Shown here one piece after another: positions 3,208-64,000 of a stretch of DNA of 64,000 nucleotides. The notes beneath the pieces were generated by a model. It ran no database searches. It was not told the DNA's origin and saw only the letters and a list, made by a program, of their open reading frames with translations. The stretch spans positions 15,885-79,884 of the IMG/VR virus record IMGVR_UViG_3300045135_000745. The stretch is one strand, 5' to 3'. The stretch comes from a virus. Within the stretch, counting starts at the first letter, position 1; each line of letters opens with the position of its first letter. The position numbers and the translations under genes were made by a program.

Positions 3208-4521
3208 TTACGCGAGGATATTGTCCACCCGAAAGATGCGATAATACTGGTTAGTCTTAGCTGTTGCAAGACCGTCCGCAGGAGTTGAACCAACGAATGG
3301 GTTAGAAGCCATGCCGTAGCGTGTCTTGAAACCAATTTTAGGCTGGAACGTTTCCTCAGCAACGGCGCGAACCATTGTAAGCGGTACGTATGGGCAGTAG
3401 AACACACCGGCGTCATATGGGTTTGTACCCTTATAGCCAACGTTGATGTAATCTGTAGCAGCATATGGATCGATATAGATCTTCATGCGACCGTTCAGCG
3501 TACCTGCGAAGGTGTTGCCTGTATCGTCTACGTTAAGTGCTGTTGACATTGCAGGAGCATAGTCAAGCATACCTGAAGCTGCAAGTGCAGATGCTACATC
3601 TGAAGACACGATAGCAAAGTTACCTTTACCACGACGTGTTTCTTTTGCGATTACGTTAGCTTCACGCTCGAGCTGAAGGATAAGACCTTTGATCTTCTCT
3701 ACGCTCCAACGACCATCAGCGTCTGTCGAAAGATCGAAGATACCGTTGATAGCTGTGTTTGCAGTAGAAGCACCAGTCTTAGCTTGGCTGTTGATTGTGC
3801 GAATAACTTCACGGTTGATTTCCGCAAGGATCTCGGTTGAAAGAATGTTCGCAAGCTCTGTTTCAGCGTCAAGACCGTGAATCGCTTTAAGATCCTGTGC
3901 AAGCTCGAGGCTGTACTCTGCTTTCAATGCACGTGATTTCGCTGTCACAGTCGCTTTTTCGATTGTGAAGCCCATCTCGTTGAAAGTAGAAGCTGATGCG
4001 CCAAGCGCTTCTGCGTCTGCAGTTGGCATACCCGAAGCAACAGTTGGACCTGTACGGTCGTTGTCGATTGAGCTATCTGAGTTAGAGTCTGTAAGACCTG
4101 AAAGACCTGATGGACCGCCAGTTTGTGTTACAGATGAGTCACCTGAGAATGCTGTGTTTGCTTCGTTGAAGAGTGCTTCAGTCGAACCAGTTGCACCAGC
4201 ACCGTAACGTGACTTCATTGCAAAGATCAAGCCTGTTGGGCCAGTCATTGGCTGAACACCAGCAACGTCATATGCCATCATGTTCGGCATCGCGCGGCGA
4301 ACAAGTGAGATAAGAACTGGGTTCCAGTTAGCTGCTGAAGAGGTGTTGTTACCTGGAGCAGCTTCGTTAAGCATTGCTGCTTGACCGGACTGCTGAGCAA
4401 ACTCTTTTTCTTGGTTTTCAAGAACAACAGCTGTAACCGCACGCTTGTGTGCGTCTTTAATTTCAGTACCTTCGTTGAGTACTGGGGCCCATTTCTGGGT
4501 TAAACGATCATAAGTTTCCAT
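3208..4521 (-). CDS. gp23: Major capsid protein
   Basis: KWAPVL, LENQE, PVLISLVRRAMPN, GVQPMTGPTGLIFAM, KSRALKAEYSLELAQDLKAIHGLDAE, FQPKIGFKTRYG. Confidence 0.99.
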   Translation of the reverse strand: METYDRLTQKWAPVLNEGTEIKDAHKRAVTAVVLENQEKEFAQQSGQAAMLNEAAPGNNTSSAANWNPVLISLVRRAMPNMMAYDVAGVQPMTGPTGLIFAMKSRYGAGATGSTEALFNEANTAFSGDSSVTQTGGPSGLSGLTDSNSDSSIDNDRTGPTVASGMPTADAEALGASASTFNEMGFTIEKATVTAKSRALKAEYSLELAQDLKAIHGLDAETELANILSTEILAEINREVIRTINSQAKTGASTANTAINGIFDLSTDADGRWSVEKIKGLILQLEREANVIAKETRRGKGNFAIVSSDVASALAASGMLDYAPAMSTALNVDDTGNTFAGTLNGRMKIYIDPYAATDYINVGYKGTNPYDAGVFYCPYVPLTMVRAVAEETFQPKIGFKTRYGMASNPFVGSTPADGLATAKTNQYYRIFRVDNILA

Positions 4522-55962: not shown

Positions 55963-56877
55963 TTAATCGCCGTTTGCTAGCTTAGCAAAGTAGCTCATAG
56001 TATCTTCTTCCTCTTCAGTATCGTCGGACGCAGTAGTCATCTCTTCGATAGTCTGAGGTGGGGTCTCACGCATGACTGGTGCAGGTGATTCTGCATTCAT
56101 CATAGCCTGTTGTGCCATTGGCATCTCAGACTGAAGACCAAGTACGTCATTCATCTTCTTCTCAAGCTCAGCATAGCTCTTATAGAACTTAGGATCAGTG
56201 AACTCGCTAAGCGGATGTAGTGTGTTGTACACACCTTCGAGGTACGTTTCGTCTGCTGATAGCTCAGTTGGACCATCGAACTCCGACTTATCGTAGTTTA
56301 CCCAACCATCAACCTTACGGATCTTAATCTTAAAGTTAGCACCTTCCCAGAAGTCGAATGGGTTCATAGGAGTCTCGTCAGCATATTGTGGCTGCATTGC
56401 ATCCATGATCTTATCAAAGATCTTTTTACCAAACTGATACATGAAGACCTTGCCTTCGTTATCAGGGTTAGCAGGATCGGATACCACGAGTACGTTTGCT
56501 ACATGATGTAGACGACGCTTCTGATCGCGTGCTTGTTTACGTGTCGGAGACTTGTCATCGTCACTCATGTTCCAGAGCTTGCTGTTAAGCGCACCTACTG
56601 GATCATCTTGACCAATCGACGTCAACGAACGCTCGATGTACCATTTACCTGTTGGGCCCTTGAATCCGTGATCCCAGTAGCGTACCCATGGAAGATCTTG
56701 ACCTTCCGCTGCTGGTAGGAAACGTACTACCGCATAGCCGTTGCCCATCTTATCGATGGTTGGCTTCCACATACGTTCGTCTTTGTAGGAGGATTTTTCA
56801 CCACCGCTAGTAGCTTCTGCTGCAGCTACGAGTTTATCGATGGAGTTACGGTTACGTTTTAGATTTGCAAAAGACAT
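55963..56877 (-). CDS. gp32: Single-stranded DNA binding protein
   Basis: DERMWKPT.DK.GNGYAV.RFLP, HGFKGPTGKWYIE.SL, FGKKIFDKI, PFDFWEGANFK.KIR, acidic tail ending YFAKLA. Confidence 0.97.
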   Translation of the reverse strand: MSFANLKRNRNSIDKLVAAAEATSGGEKSSYKDERMWKPTIDKMGNGYAVVRFLPAAEGQDLPWVRYWDHGFKGPTGKWYIERSLTSIGQDDPVGALNSKLWNMSDDDKSPTRKQARDQKRRLHHVANVLVVSDPANPDNEGKVFMYQFGKKIFDKIMDAMQPQYADETPMNPFDFWEGANFKIKIRKVDGWVNYDKSEFDGPTELSADETYLEGVYNTLHPLSEFTDPKFYKSYAELEKKMNDVLGLQSEMPMAQQAMMNAESPAPVMRETPPQTIEEMTTASDDTEEEEDTMSYFAKLANGD

Positions 56878-61813: not shown

Positions 61814-62300
61814 TAGTAATCTCCGTTAGTGATATATGTACAGGTGATTTAATTATAAATTCCACCACATCCGCAACATCTCGTACATTCATTTTTTCTC
61901 TGTGTGTGATGCTATTTACCATTGGGGTATCAATAATCGTCGGACGAATTGTGGCTACCCTACACAAAGAAGAACGAGATGCCTCTTCAAGTAGGATTTT
62001 GTTCTTTGAATATTCAGTATTTTTCTTTAGGGTGACTGCATATGAGGATATGTTTACAATCAGCTTATTTGGGTCTGCCCAAGCTTCATCTACTACTTTA
62101 AATAAAGATGCTTGATACGTACCACTATAAGCATTGTTAATGAATACATTACAATCAGATATTGCTTCTACAATCGGACTCGGGTGGGCGATATCAAATC
62201 CGTTTTTTAAATCAAATCCTACAGAGTTGAACCTAAAATATAATTCTTTGCCTAATCCAGAACAATGGCCGGTAATCCCAACTTTCAATGCCGACATCAT
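61797..62300 (-). CDS. Short-chain dehydrogenase/reductase (compact)
   Basis: GITGHCSGLG (TGxxxGxG), FINNA, VNISS, YSKNK (YxxxK), IDTPMV. Confidence 0.82.
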   Translation of the reverse strand: MMSALKVGITGHCSGLGKELYFRFNSVGFDLKNGFDIAHPSPIVEAISDCNVFINNAYSGTYQASLFKVVDEAWADPNKLIVNISSYAVTLKKNTEYSKNKILLEEASRSSLCRVATIRPTIIDTPMVNSITHREKMNVRDVADVVEFIIKSPVHISLTEITNGRYI

Positions 62301-62347
62301 AAATTCCTTTCTAATTTATATATAATGTAAACTACACGCTATAAACG

Positions 62348-62383
62348 AAAAAAGGCACCAAGACCGAAGTCAAGGTGCCTTTA
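62348..62383 (-). terminator. Terminator at the end of the tRNA array (UUCG loop)
   Basis: AGGCACC-tt-GAC-TTCG-GTC-tt-GGTGCCT followed by a T-run. Confidence 0.85.
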
Positions 62384-62386
62384 TTA

Positions 62387-62462
62387 TGGTGCCGCCACGA
62401 GGAATCGAACCCCGGGCATCCTGATTACAAATCAGGCGCTCTACCATCTGAGCTATAGCGGC
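62387..62462 (-). tRNA. tRNA-Thr(UGU)
   Basis: Cloverleaf, CCTGA-TT-TGT-AA-TCAGG, encoded CCA. Confidence 0.95.
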
Positions 62463-62478
62463 TTAAACTTTTCGTGTA

Positions 62479-62570
62479 TGGCGGAAAGTAAGGGATTCGA
62501 ACCCTTGATAGAGCTTTCGCCCTATGACGGTTTAGCAAACCGCTGATTTAAACCACTCATCCAACTTTCC
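62479..62570 (-). tRNA. tRNA-Ser(GCU)
   Basis: GCGGT-TT-GCT-AA-ACCGT, long variable arm, CCA. Confidence 0.95.
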
Positions 62571-62576
62571 ATTATT

Positions 62577-62659
62577 TGGTACCTCTGGAGGGACTCGAAC
62601 CCCCACTCTTGCGAACTGCATTCTAAGTGCAGCGTGTCTACCAATTCCACCACAGAGGC
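62577..62659 (-). tRNA. tRNA-Leu(UAG)
   Basis: CTGCA-CT-TAG-AA-TGCAG, variable arm, CCA. Confidence 0.95.
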
Positions 62660-62665
62660 ATATTC

Positions 62666-62741
62666 TGGTGCAAGATGTAGGGCTCGAACCTACGACCTGA
62701 GGTATGTAAAACCCCTGCTCTCCCATCTGAGCTAATCTTGC
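62666..62741 (-). tRNA. tRNA-Val(UAC)
   Basis: GGGGT-TT-TAC-AT-ACCTC, CCA. Confidence 0.93.
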
Positions 62742-62742
62742 A

Positions 62743-62818
62743 TGGCGGACTTGACGGGTTTCGATCCCGCTGCCTTCGGCGTGACAGGCCGACGCTCTCC
62801 CGATTGAGCTACAAGTCC
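62743..62818 (-). tRNA. tRNA-Asp(GUC)
   Basis: TCGGC-CT-GTC-AC-GCCGA, T-loop ATCGAAA, CCA. Confidence 0.93.
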
Positions 62819-62827
62819 ATTAAACTT

Positions 62828-62955
62828 TAAAGCAGGAATGTGGCTATACACAAGGAGGAGCCGAAGCCTGTCCTAGTTCCCTAAATTCCCTTGACAGCGA
62901 TCAACCTGCCTCAACACGTAAACATCCGTGTATCCTATCAAAGATAGTGGTCTAC
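62828..62955 (-). ncRNA. Putative structured ncRNA between tRNA-Gly and tRNA-Asp
   Basis: Several stems including GAGGCAGG/CCTGCTTT, CAAGG/CCTTG and a GGC-UUCG-GCU hairpin; no ORF. Confidence 0.45.
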
Positions 62956-62959
62956 TTTT

Positions 62960-63034
62960 TGGAGCGGATAGAGAATTTCGAAATCTCGACACTCTGGTTG
63001 GAAACCAGATGCTCTGCCTCTGAGCTATACCCGC
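62960..63034 (-). tRNA. tRNA-Gly(UCC)
   Basis: TCTGG-TT-TCC-AA-CCAGA, CCA; atypical T-stem GAGAT/TTCTC. Confidence 0.9.
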
Positions 63035-63038
63035 AATT

Positions 63039-63060
63039 TGGTGGAAGATATCGGACTCGA
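63039..63060 (-). pseudogene. 3' fragment of a disrupted tRNA-Ala
   Basis: TCGAGTCCGATATCTTCCACCA = T-loop, T-stem, acceptor 3' strand with U70, ACCA. Confidence 0.75.
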
Positions 63061-63069
63061 TATAAACTC

Positions 63070-63651
63070 CTAATCTATGGTGGAGGATAAGGGAGTTGAA
63101 CCCTTGACTCTGCCTTGCAAGGGCAGCGTGTTCCCATTAGCACCAATCCCCCATTTTTCTTTTACTAATTCCTCAATCAAAGGAACTACTTCGTCTGACC
63201 ATTTACTATGAACCATTTCGTGATGATTTGGACATAAAGGTATCAAGTTTTTTGGTTCATTGTTATAATGATTTTCATCAACATGATGAACAGCAACTAC
63301 TTTATCAAATCCACAAATTGCACATTCGCATTTCCAATGTTGAAATGCTATAGTTCTATAGTGTGTAGCATTATCATTCCACCATTCTTGCCTATTATTT
63401 GCACAAGACCTAGAACAATAATACTTATCTTTTTGAGGATAAAGTTTTTCTCGTTCTTTTACTAAAAACTTATTAGAACAACATAAACATTCAACTTCAA
63501 ACTCCTTCAGTTCACCGAACTTACTGATAGTTCCTTGGGCTTTATTCCAATTATTCCTTTTAGGGTTATGGTCGCACCAACGACTATGATTAGCCTTTTC
63601 TGAAGTAGTTGAGAAATTAAACTCTGTTTTGCAATGTTTGCATTTCCACAT
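63070..63651 (-). CDS. HNH homing endonuclease with zinc-finger N-terminus
   Basis: CKHC...H...C, CLCC...YCSRSC, CAICG....AVHHVDENHYNN..KNLIPLCPNHHEMVH. Confidence 0.9.
   Translation of the reverse strand: MWKCKHCKTEFNFSTTSEKANHSRWCDHNPKRNNWNKAQGTISKFGELKEFEVECLCCSNKFLVKEREKLYPQKDKYYCSRSCANNRQEWWNDNATHYRTIAFQHWKCECAICGFDKVVAVHHVDENHYNNEPKNLIPLCPNHHEMVHSKWSDEVVPLIEELVKEKWGIGANGNTLPLQGRVKGSTPLSSTID
63078..63152 (-). tRNA. tRNA-Ala(UGC), nested in the 3' end of the HNH ORF
   Basis: Acceptor GGGGGAT/ATCCTCC with G3:U70, CTGCC-CT-TGC-AA-GGCAG, CCA. Confidence 0.9.
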
Positions 63652-63652
63652 T

Positions 63653-63687
63653 CGAATTACCTCCTATTATGGAGTATTTATAATTCG
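63653..63687 (-). promoter_or_regulatory. Late promoter (63675-63682) inside an RBS-sequestering hairpin for the HNH gene
   Basis: CGAATTA-taaata-CTCC-ataata-GGAG-g-TAATTCG-a-ATG. Confidence 0.8.
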
Positions 63688-63696
63688 CACATTTTC

Positions 63697-63732
63697 TGCA
63701 AAGCAATTGCTCTCCAGACGAGCTAATTCCCC
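63697..63732 (-). pseudogene. 5' half of a disrupted tRNA-Ala(UGC)
   Basis: GGGGAATTAGCTCGTCTGGAGAGCAATTGCTTTGCA: acceptor 5' strand, D arm and anticodon TGC, then an abrupt break. Confidence 0.8.
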
Positions 63733-63739
63733 GAATAAG

Positions 63740-63869
63740 TGTGGTAGATTTGCCACGCTGGTTCTACCACGAACCTCGACTGCTCCCAAACCTTTGGTAA
63801 AGGAGTCATAAACTTGGCAGTCAAACATGCATTCTTTTAACCTATCCGCCTTATGATAGGTACCAAGTT
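63740..63869 (-). ncRNA. Putative structured ncRNA downstream of tRNA-Ser(UGA)
   Basis: Stems AACTTGGTA/TGCCAAGTT, ACCTATC/GATAGGT, CCTTT/AAAGG, TTGACTGC/GCAGTCGA, GTGGTAGA/TCTACCAC. Confidence 0.55.
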
Positions 63870-63873
63870 ATTA

Positions 63874-63967
63874 TGGCGGAAGCGTAGGGATTCGAACCCT
63901 AGGACGACATCACTGCCGTCGCTGCTTTTCAAGAGCAGTGCAATAAACCTGACTCTGCCACGCTTCC
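63874..63967 (-). tRNA. tRNA-Ser(UGA)
   Basis: CTGCT-CT-TGA-AA-AGCAG, long variable arm, CCA. Confidence 0.95.
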
Positions 63968-63972
63968 ATTAT

Positions 63973-64000
63973 TGGCGCTCCCGGAAGGACTCGAACCCTC
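63973..64000 (-). tRNA. 3' end of a further tRNA (truncated by the window; identity unknown)
   Basis: GAGGG-TTCGAGT-CCTTC-CGGGAGC-GCCA. Confidence 0.8.

Follow-up and report, generated by a model that had tools for sequence, protein, structure and literature searches.

The tRNA array at the end of the analysed stretch of viral DNA carries an HNH endonuclease gene wedged between the two halves of an alanine tRNA gene. The stretch, referred to here as the window, is the final 64 kb of a 79.9-kb IMG/VR phage contig (IMGVR_UViG_3300045135_000745) with an estimated completeness of 48%. Comparison with related loci makes it probable that the inserted sequence is a free-standing, intron-less HNH homing cassette, which carries a linked rescue tRNA-Ala and is lodged in a former canonical tRNA-Ala gene. 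The cassette measures about 620-630 bp and has three parts: a leader hairpin that contains a late-promoter motif of the T4 type, then the HNH gene, and finally an intact tRNA-Ala(UGC), the 5' end of which overlaps the HNH gene at its 3' end. It sits in the anticodon loop of the resident gene (C36/A37, within about one base), and the two decaying halves of that gene flank it. Read along the minus strand, the order is a tRNA-Ala(UGC) 5' half, the motif TATAAATA in a hairpin, an HNH open reading frame (ORF) of 193 codons, an intact but divergent tRNA-Ala(UGC) in the 3' end of the ORF, and a decayed tRNA-Ala 3' half.

The 5' half of the resident gene lies at 63697-63732 on the minus strand (GGGGAAT-TA-GCTC...TTTGCA). 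It corresponds to the initial 36 nt of a canonical tRNA-Ala(UGC), covers tRNA positions 1-37 and breaks off directly after the anticodon with the letters TTTGCA, as an earlier reading made from the sequence only had described. Its local alignment to a tRNA-Ala reference had a score that none of 300 shuffled sequences reached. The decayed 3' half (positions ~38-76) occupies 63039-63074 on the same strand and was identified by alignment to tRNA positions 38-75 and to the split tRNA-Ala of a related IMG/VR locus, L003. About one in 300 shuffles aligned equally well to reference positions 38-75 (p ~0.003). The sequence-only reading had placed a 3' remnant at 63060-63039 and considered about 17 nt of the original gene (positions 38-54) to be missing. 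The remnant and its end (...CTTCCACCA at 63039) were recovered, but the 3' half begins further upstream. The 17 nt at 63077-63061, between the nested tRNA and the previously recognized remnant, align with positions 37-53 of the split gene in L003, and therefore the 3' half is degenerate rather than truncated. It is near full length in the window, with a 2-nt gap in the T arm.

An insert at the classic intron position beside the anticodon could in principle be removed from RNA. The outer halves would then still yield a working tRNA, and the 640-nt insert would be a new kind of tRNA intron, akin to the tRNA-in-tRNA introns of Lak phages and excised by tRNA-processing enzymes together with a phage RNA ligase, or else the gene would encode a split tRNA. 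The L003 locus fits this idea in one respect, in that its halves (36 + 39 nt) are complete and are called by ARAGORN, once joined, as a complete 75-nt tRNA-Ala(UGC). In the window, however, the T arm and the anticodon stem are broken. The acceptor stem still forms six of seven pairs across the halves, the anticodon-stem strands ATTGC and TTAGG show no pairing, and the joined halves were never recognized as a tRNA by ARAGORN, which agrees with the earlier proposal that splicing cannot restore the gene. Run in intron mode on the window and nine relatives, ARAGORN detected no tRNA with an intron, and the fragments of other relatives have lost at least 10 nt or whole halves. An Infernal search across 62300-64000 returned no Rfam match to a group I or group II ribozyme at E <= 10. 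Moreover, the intact isoacceptor removes any need for functional halves. We regard a working outer tRNA as very improbable. A group I intron in the anticodon loop was considered separately and rejected: there was no Intron_gpI match, only about 45 nt separate the 5' half from the ORF, and the nested tRNA is followed by the 3' half within 3 nt, which leaves no room. The HNH ORF has its own Shine-Dalgarno sequence and ATG and, with no ribozyme match around it, lies outside any self-splicing intron or intein, as expected of a free-standing nuclease gene.

The intact tRNA-Ala(UGC) inside the 3' end of the HNH gene, which we take to be the rescue copy that accompanies the nuclease, was confirmed at 63078-63152 (minus strand). 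ARAGORN calls it Ala(tgc), and it scores 56.4 bits against the Infernal model RF00005, which has a gathering score of 29. The acceptor stem has seven of seven pairs, and G3:U70, A73-CCA and the UGC anticodon complete the set of features for alanine identity, a set that the joined outer halves do not possess. The whole tRNA lies within the ORF, in its last 26 codons. The D arm has the sequence T-G-GTGC-TAATGGGA-ACAC, and the anticodon and T arms differ very little from those in the tRNA-Ala of Vibrio phage CZ01, which is free of HNH. The nested gene is an ordinary phage tRNA-Ala variant and not a purpose-made copy; the suggestion that the replacement had been recoded did not hold. Where both fragments persist (five loci), target halves and nested tRNAs have different D arms, and the D arm is a candidate site for discrimination between them.

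The cassette behaves as a mobile block. Its borders of identity with L003 fall at 63065 and 63696 on the minus strand and enclose the leader, the HNH gene, the nested tRNA and a short, putatively co-converted stretch. The window and L003 align over 788 nt and share nothing further except tRNA-level similarity, with the alignment ending at the 5' half and at the next tRNA-Gly. Over 63696-63065, from just past TTTGC[A/T]G to ...CCACCATA[G/A]ATTAGGAGTT, identity is about 95%, and it falls to about 65% in the outer portions of the tRNA halves. The 5' halves of the two loci differ in their acceptor strands (GGGGAAT versus GGGCTCT), D loops and anticodon stems. They come from two distinct resident tRNA-Ala genes that are both interrupted at one and the same position, C36/A37 to within about one base. 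A third context was found in a 5.9-kb contig from an algae-metagenome run, X5, which matches the window only over 63058-63702 (16 differences among 645 nt) before diverging. The leader, HNH gene and nested tRNA are therefore about 95-97% identical, with the same edges, in three phage contexts that are otherwise unalignable, and comparison of these contexts shows that the HNH gene and the nested tRNA-Ala travel as a unit. High identity extends into the 3' half by 10 nt in the comparison with L003 and by 16 nt in that with X5, and into the 5' half by at most 6 nt. This overrun is compatible with co-conversion and could also reflect conservation. The initial 10 nt of the 3' half (ATTAGGAGTT) are identical between the window and L003, and this stretch may have been co-converted together with the cassette. 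A 43-mer from the 5' end of the cassette was found only in L003's own phage.

The association between this nuclease and tRNA-Ala recurs in diverged relatives. Among 23 IMG/VR loci that encode a homologue of the HNH protein, about 13 were distinct, one of which (L022) is cut by the contig end. Twelve distinct loci, at 49-93% amino-acid identity, include the 3' end of the HNH gene, and in every one of them this end is overlapped by a tRNA-Ala(UGC). The neighbouring tRNA genes vary by locus, with Pro, Leu, Asp, Thr, Gly or Ser upstream and Met, Gly or others downstream. Eight loci have the HNH stop codon at tRNA positions 8-14, one has it in mid-tRNA, and in four it comes 5-8 nt past the CCA. In five loci (the window, L003, L004, L011 and L013), fragments of a canonical tRNA-Ala are present on both sides of the cassette; L009 and L022 (where the contig ends) have them on one side, and L006 has a 10-nt stub only. 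The acceptor strands of the fragments pair at seven of seven positions in L003 (GGGCTCT/AGGGTCC), L011 (GGGGATA/TATCTCC) and L013 (GGGGGTG/TACCTCC), and at six of seven in L004, as in the window. Because the acceptor strands are complementary within each locus, the fragments are the two halves of one former gene.

Several further features of these loci were observed. L013 has a second intact tRNA-Ala(UGC) at 3738-3812, 300 nt downstream of the HNH cassette and 3' remnant. In L003, ARAGORN reports a tRNA with a four-base anticodon (gaac) at 1641-1715, which represents a pseudo-tRNA or else one that resembles a frameshift suppressor. More distant HNH homologues (39% identity) occur in two jumbo phages, Serratia phage BF (L027, 1084-1905) and Xanthomonas phage XbC2 (L028, 1019-1884), where they directly follow duplicated tRNA-Pro(UGG) genes, one of which is annotated as a pseudogene. 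These phages may harbour an analogous relationship between nuclease and tRNA for another isoacceptor.

One rival reading is that the real target of the HNH protein lies elsewhere, in another tRNA gene or an intergenic site, and that tRNA-Ala hitch-hikes while the halves arose by recombination between paralogues in a shuffling array. T4 SegB, which cleaves a tRNA-Asn gene and carries adjacent tRNA genes with it (PMC2330249), provides a precedent. Arrays of tRNA genes are prone to recombination, six relatives have no clear flank fragments, and the distant homologues adjoin tRNA-Pro rather than tRNA-Ala. However, the junction is the same to within about one base in the two different resident genes of the window and L003, flank fragments are always derived from tRNA-Ala and have mutually paired acceptor strands, and the overlap between HNH and tRNA-Ala is retained at protein identities of 44-93%. 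On this evidence, a target other than tRNA-Ala seems unlikely.

A cultured phage pair provides a presence/absence comparison for the family. Vibrio phage nt-1 encodes an HNH protein (VPFG_00366) that is 44% identical to that of the window, and its ORF overlaps a tRNA-Ala(UGC) by 42 nt. Where the region can be matched between them, Vibrio phage CZ01 and nt-1 share 99.4% identity. CZ01 lacks the HNH gene, and a different tRNA-Ala stands exactly where nt-1 has HNH and tRNA. A three-way alignment showed that the two phages are identical on both sides of the junction. The borders of the exchange fall directly after the stop codon of the upstream ORF and at the CCACCA end of the tRNA. In this pair, a member of the family thus shows the presence/absence polymorphism with conserved flanks that characterizes homing genes, and the alignment fits the pattern expected of homing in which HNH and tRNA were exchanged together. 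At the same position, phage KVP40 carries a feature annotated as 'tRNA-Pseudo-1' (L029, 1003-1077), a degenerate counterpart of the CZ01 and nt-1 tRNA-Ala that is not called by ARAGORN. Upstream of the HNH gene in nt-1, the segment absent from CZ01 includes a degraded stretch (GGTGGAATCTACTCAGTTAGCATGAG; L026, 1395-1425) similar to the 5' portion of a canonical tRNA-Ala, and this suggests that a 5' fragment is able to move along with the cassette.

The presence/absence pattern also bears on why the nuclease is kept. It could be maintained mainly for the benefit of the phage, for instance because it remodels or amplifies the tRNA array and so counters host defences that target tRNA, with selfish spread being secondary. 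SegB is reported in PMC13096335 to promote segmental amplification of anti-defence loci when Septu cleaves tRNA-Tyr. There is no sign of amplification at the locus studied here, however, where the only duplicated tRNA-Ala sequence is that of the broken halves, and presence/absence together with sharp borders of identity is what selfish homing predicts. We consider a role mainly in phage benefit quite improbable.

Uninterrupted alleles of the presumed target are widespread. Using a 28-nt pattern over the insertion point (GGGAGAGCGCCTGATTTGCnnTYAGGAG), we found a canonical allele that spans this point without interruption in at least 120 viral contigs. An HNH homologue was present in none of 80 examined loci with an intact canonical tRNA-Ala, which lends indirect support to a putative cleavage of nuclease-less alleles, and none of these 80 contigs was syntenic with the window or L003. 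The sequence-only reading had proposed comparison with relatives that lack the HNH gene, and for the window phage itself none emerged; at the level of the family, nt-1 and CZ01 supply the comparison. Exact-pattern searches of viral and metagenome contigs gave no intact GGGGAAT-type tRNA-Ala allele, a neighbouring 167-residue protein had no relatives in viral contigs, and relatives found through gp32 (93-97% identity) either had no tRNA array within reach or were cut by the contig end. No joint that skips the cassette was present in the contigs of four runs, an absence that proves nothing, as contigs only were searched. One joint in run X5 (63046 to 63874) was considered as an HNH-less allele and rejected; its shorter side is 27 nt, and it lies in a high-depth contig with tandem tRNA-Gly genes that was taken to be from another organism.

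The HNH gene itself occupies 63070-63651 on the minus strand, with 193 codons and a TAG stop at 63072-63070. The earlier assignment to the HNH family was borne out by matches to HNH PHROG families, the best being PHROG 1271 (8.5e-17). The ORF contains the His-(Asn)-His motif and flanking zinc Cys pairs of the HNH superfamily. Across 12 homologues, the invariant elements are CxxC, CSRSC, CxxC, HH, N, CPNHH and H, which describe a zinc ribbon followed by a zinc-HNH active site and include HH122-123, N131/N135, H144/H148, CxxC 110-113 and CxxH 140-143. With its catalytic and zinc residues invariant, the nuclease is active-looking. Structural and sequence matches were to the HNH domains of IscB, McrA, Cap5 and Cas9 and to no others, and the best matches in the Protein Data Bank (PDB) were the HNH domains of IscB and McrA. 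Foldseek against the PDB gave weak HNH-domain matches only, with nothing at E <= 0.001, and NCBIfam gave a sub-threshold match to the IscB HNH and nothing else. AlphaFold confidence (predicted local distance difference test) reaches 86-92 in the HNH core (residues 101-160) and stays below 50 in residues 170-193.

The conserved part of the protein stops near residue 167 (...KEKW), and residues ~168-193 are read-through of the tRNA. The full tRNA-encoded tail is found only in the window, L003, L004 and L009; it is absent from seven of 12 aligned homologues and partial in an eighth. Because the tail is missing from most homologues and is modelled as disordered, it is incidental read-through, and amino-acid similarity within it is a reflection of tRNA conservation. 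At the other end of the protein, residues 1-43 (63523-63651) form an extra CxxC...HxxxC zinc-finger-like extension that is found only in the window, L003 and L010. The remaining homologues begin at the equivalent of residue ~44 with MNNGKY.

The leader between the 5' half and the ORF is 45 nt long and contains TATAAATA at 63682-63675, 24 nt ahead of the ATG. The late promoter proposed from the sequence is supported, in that the motif is conserved within a hairpin and is enriched in the window, with 17 occurrences against 7.6 expected. The hairpin spans 63648-63692 (minus strand) and has a predicted folding energy of -14.2 kcal/mol (z = -3.6), matched by none of 200 shuffles. The motif sits in the 5' arm. 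CUCC pairs with the Shine-Dalgarno sequence GGAGG (63664-63660), CGAAUUAU pairs with GUAAUUCG, and the AUG (63651-63649) is itself paired. Analogous hairpins surround ATAAATA motifs in five relatives, and a compensatory pair change distinguishes L013 (ATCGCAT/ATGCGAT) from L024 (ATTGCAT/ATGCAAT).

In phage T4, a late promoter and a hairpin that sequesters the ribosome-binding site restrict I-TevI to late translation. The cassette resembles I-TevI in having TATAAATA within a hairpin that pairs the Shine-Dalgarno sequence and the AUG, so that only late transcripts starting inside the hairpin should be translated. A T4-type late transcript would start about 6 nt downstream of TATAAATA, lack the sequestering 5' arm, and be translatable late, and such late transcripts would supply the nuclease. 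In read-through transcripts of the tRNA operon, the hairpin would hide the ribosome-binding site and the AUG, leaving the message untranslated and the nested tRNA free for processing. I-TevI is encoded inside a self-splicing intron of a protein gene, whereas the hairpin of the cassette would, by analogy, protect maturation of the tRNA operon. The hairpin and the motif are features of the sequence, from which expression would be timed in this way. Every member examined has its HNH stop codon within the tRNA or shortly after it, and RNase P processing would therefore deprive the HNH message of its stop; nuclease levels may be low as a consequence. The earlier idea that tRNA processing may act as a limiter of HNH expression is compatible with the placement of the stop codon in all members.

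Together, these observations suggest how the homing cassette could spread. In a mixed infection, the HNH protein would cut or nick the uninterrupted canonical tRNA-Ala gene of a phage that lacks the cassette. The break would be repaired from the cassette-bearing genome, with the tRNA halves and any wider homology probably serving as recombination arms, and the HNH gene and nested tRNA would be copied in together, as their movement in one block indicates. Insertion would destroy the target, and the nested divergent tRNA-Ala would keep alanine decoding intact and presumably escape cutting. The sequence-only reading had pictured a selfish element that cuts and replaces, and that picture is strengthened by the mobility of the block, the recurrent layout and the replacement of a resident tRNA-Ala between nt-1 and CZ01. 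The cut-and-replace model is well supported by comparative evidence, with a putative enzymology.

Several points weigh against a homing cassette directed at canonical tRNA-Ala. In nt-1, the HNH-linked tRNA is of the canonical type and the tRNA that was replaced is of the phage type, the reverse of the situation in the window; because of this reversal, no single resistant sequence type holds across the family, and any specificity must differ between sub-families. The six relatives without clear flank fragments require an explanation, and deletion between the direct repeats formed by the nested tRNA and the remnants may account for them. The anticodon stem of the 3' half in the window mismatches that of its own 5' half, which requires the extra assumption of co-conversion from an L003-like donor. 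Searches by pattern, neighbouring protein and gp32 found no HNH-less close relative of the window phage. The Pfam HNH_2 match is weak (16.3 bits, under the curated 21-bit cutoff). Finally, both the cleavage of tRNA-Ala genes by the HNH protein and the resistance of the nested tRNA are putative.

The host of the cassette is a marine phage that is T4-like, as judged from gp32 at 55963-56877 and the enrichment of TATAAATA late-promoter motifs. By ARAGORN, the minus-strand array at the end of the window comprises tRNA-Ser(UGA), the split-tRNA/HNH feature, tRNA-Gly(UCC), Asp, Val, Leu, Ser and Thr. The genes that flank the feature are tRNA-Ser(UGA) at 63874-63967 and tRNA-Gly(UCC) at 62960-63034, both on the minus strand. 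Two spacers were noted in the array. A 130-nt non-tRNA spacer (63740-63869) that is not common to L003 lies between tRNA-Ser(UGA) and the broken 5' half, and a 141-nt spacer with no tRNA call (62819-62959) lies between tRNA-Gly(UCC) and tRNA-Asp in an array that is otherwise tightly packed. Since the window ends at the contig end within a repetitive tRNA array, the arrangement might be an assembly chimera, or the similarities might be due to chance. However, the sequence is present in seawater and estuary metagenome runs, and contigs identical to the window over 63012-64000 occur in an estuary run of a different study, and therefore the arrangement is not an assembly artefact. The same layout also recurs in many independent assemblies and in a cultured phage, and the shuffle tests gave p <= 0.003. 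A chimera or chance resemblance is extremely unlikely.

The closest known parallels come from T4. SegB is a free-standing GIY-YIG nuclease of the T4 tRNA cluster that recognizes a shared T-psi-C motif and lies between genes (PMC2330249), and SegF, SegG and MobE are described as free-standing endonucleases of 'intronless homing' (PMC2330249, PMC2790892). Like SegB, the nuclease of the cassette is encoded by a free-standing gene in a T4-like tRNA cluster, has an apparent tRNA-gene target in phages without the nuclease, would be co-inherited with neighbouring tRNA genes through break repair, and differs by presence or absence between close relatives. Unlike SegB, it is a small zinc-HNH enzyme, with an ORF that overlaps an extra copy of its apparent target, the same isoacceptor. 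Moreover, the cassette interrupts the target gene at the anticodon, and the two broken halves of that gene are retained as flanking repeats or homology arms.

Interrupted tRNA genes have been described elsewhere. Lak megaphages contain 'enigmatic' tRNA introns, and one intron in a tRNA-Thr gene is reported as possibly encoding a tRNA (Devoto et al. 2019, PMC6784885). As in those reported inserts, the tRNA gene in the window is interrupted at the anticodon by a segment with another tRNA-like gene, and presence varies among related genomes. The published description of the Lak inserts, where it treats these introns, makes no mention of a nuclease gene and presents them as introns of otherwise intact tRNAs. 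By comparison, the insert of the cassette is about 640 nt long and encodes an HNH protein, and the outer gene is dead in the window. We considered assigning the cassette to the Lak 'enigmatic' introns and rejected this; the insert is protein-coding and about 640 nt long, the outer halves are degenerate in the window, and there is a resemblance only. Group I introns with homing endonucleases occur in the anticodon loops of bacterial tRNA genes (review PMC3984707). The cassette shares with these introns its position beside the anticodon and a putative homing nuclease as the engine of mobility, but it has no ribozyme, and function would be restored by a second gene copy and not by RNA splicing. 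Full-text literature searches returned no description of an HNH-plus-tRNA cassette.

Synthetic 'cleave and rescue' drives combine a nuclease against an essential gene with a tightly linked, sequence-divergent rescue copy. The cassette appears to follow the same logic of a nuclease plus a linked divergent rescue copy, and it differs from the synthetic drives in being natural, phage-borne, protein-guided and inserted within the target gene. More speculatively, the cassette could be a portable natural drive of this kind, in which the target halves act as universal homology arms and allow homing into any phage with a canonical tRNA-Ala, the late-promoter hairpin and the buried stop codon tie nuclease output to processing of the tRNA operon, and loss of the HNH gene could give rise to the 'tRNA inside a tRNA' introns of huge phages. 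We put this extended version forward as a possibility that we hold rather doubtful.

Homing endonucleases are known to reside in genes by way of self-splicing introns or inteins, or to sit beside their targets. The cassette would represent a third way to occupy a gene, in which a nuclease resides inside an RNA gene without splicing and the cost is paid by a spare copy. It would provide a natural precedent for engineered drives, as the logic is that of synthetic cleave-and-rescue, and would give a testable origin for the nested-tRNA inserts of huge phages. A small nuclease family putatively directed at tRNA genes may be a new source of site-specific enzymes, and the cultured pair nt-1 and CZ01, on Vibrio natriegens, is a tractable system. 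If the mechanism holds, it would explain the exchange and reordering of genes among the tRNA arrays of unrelated phages.

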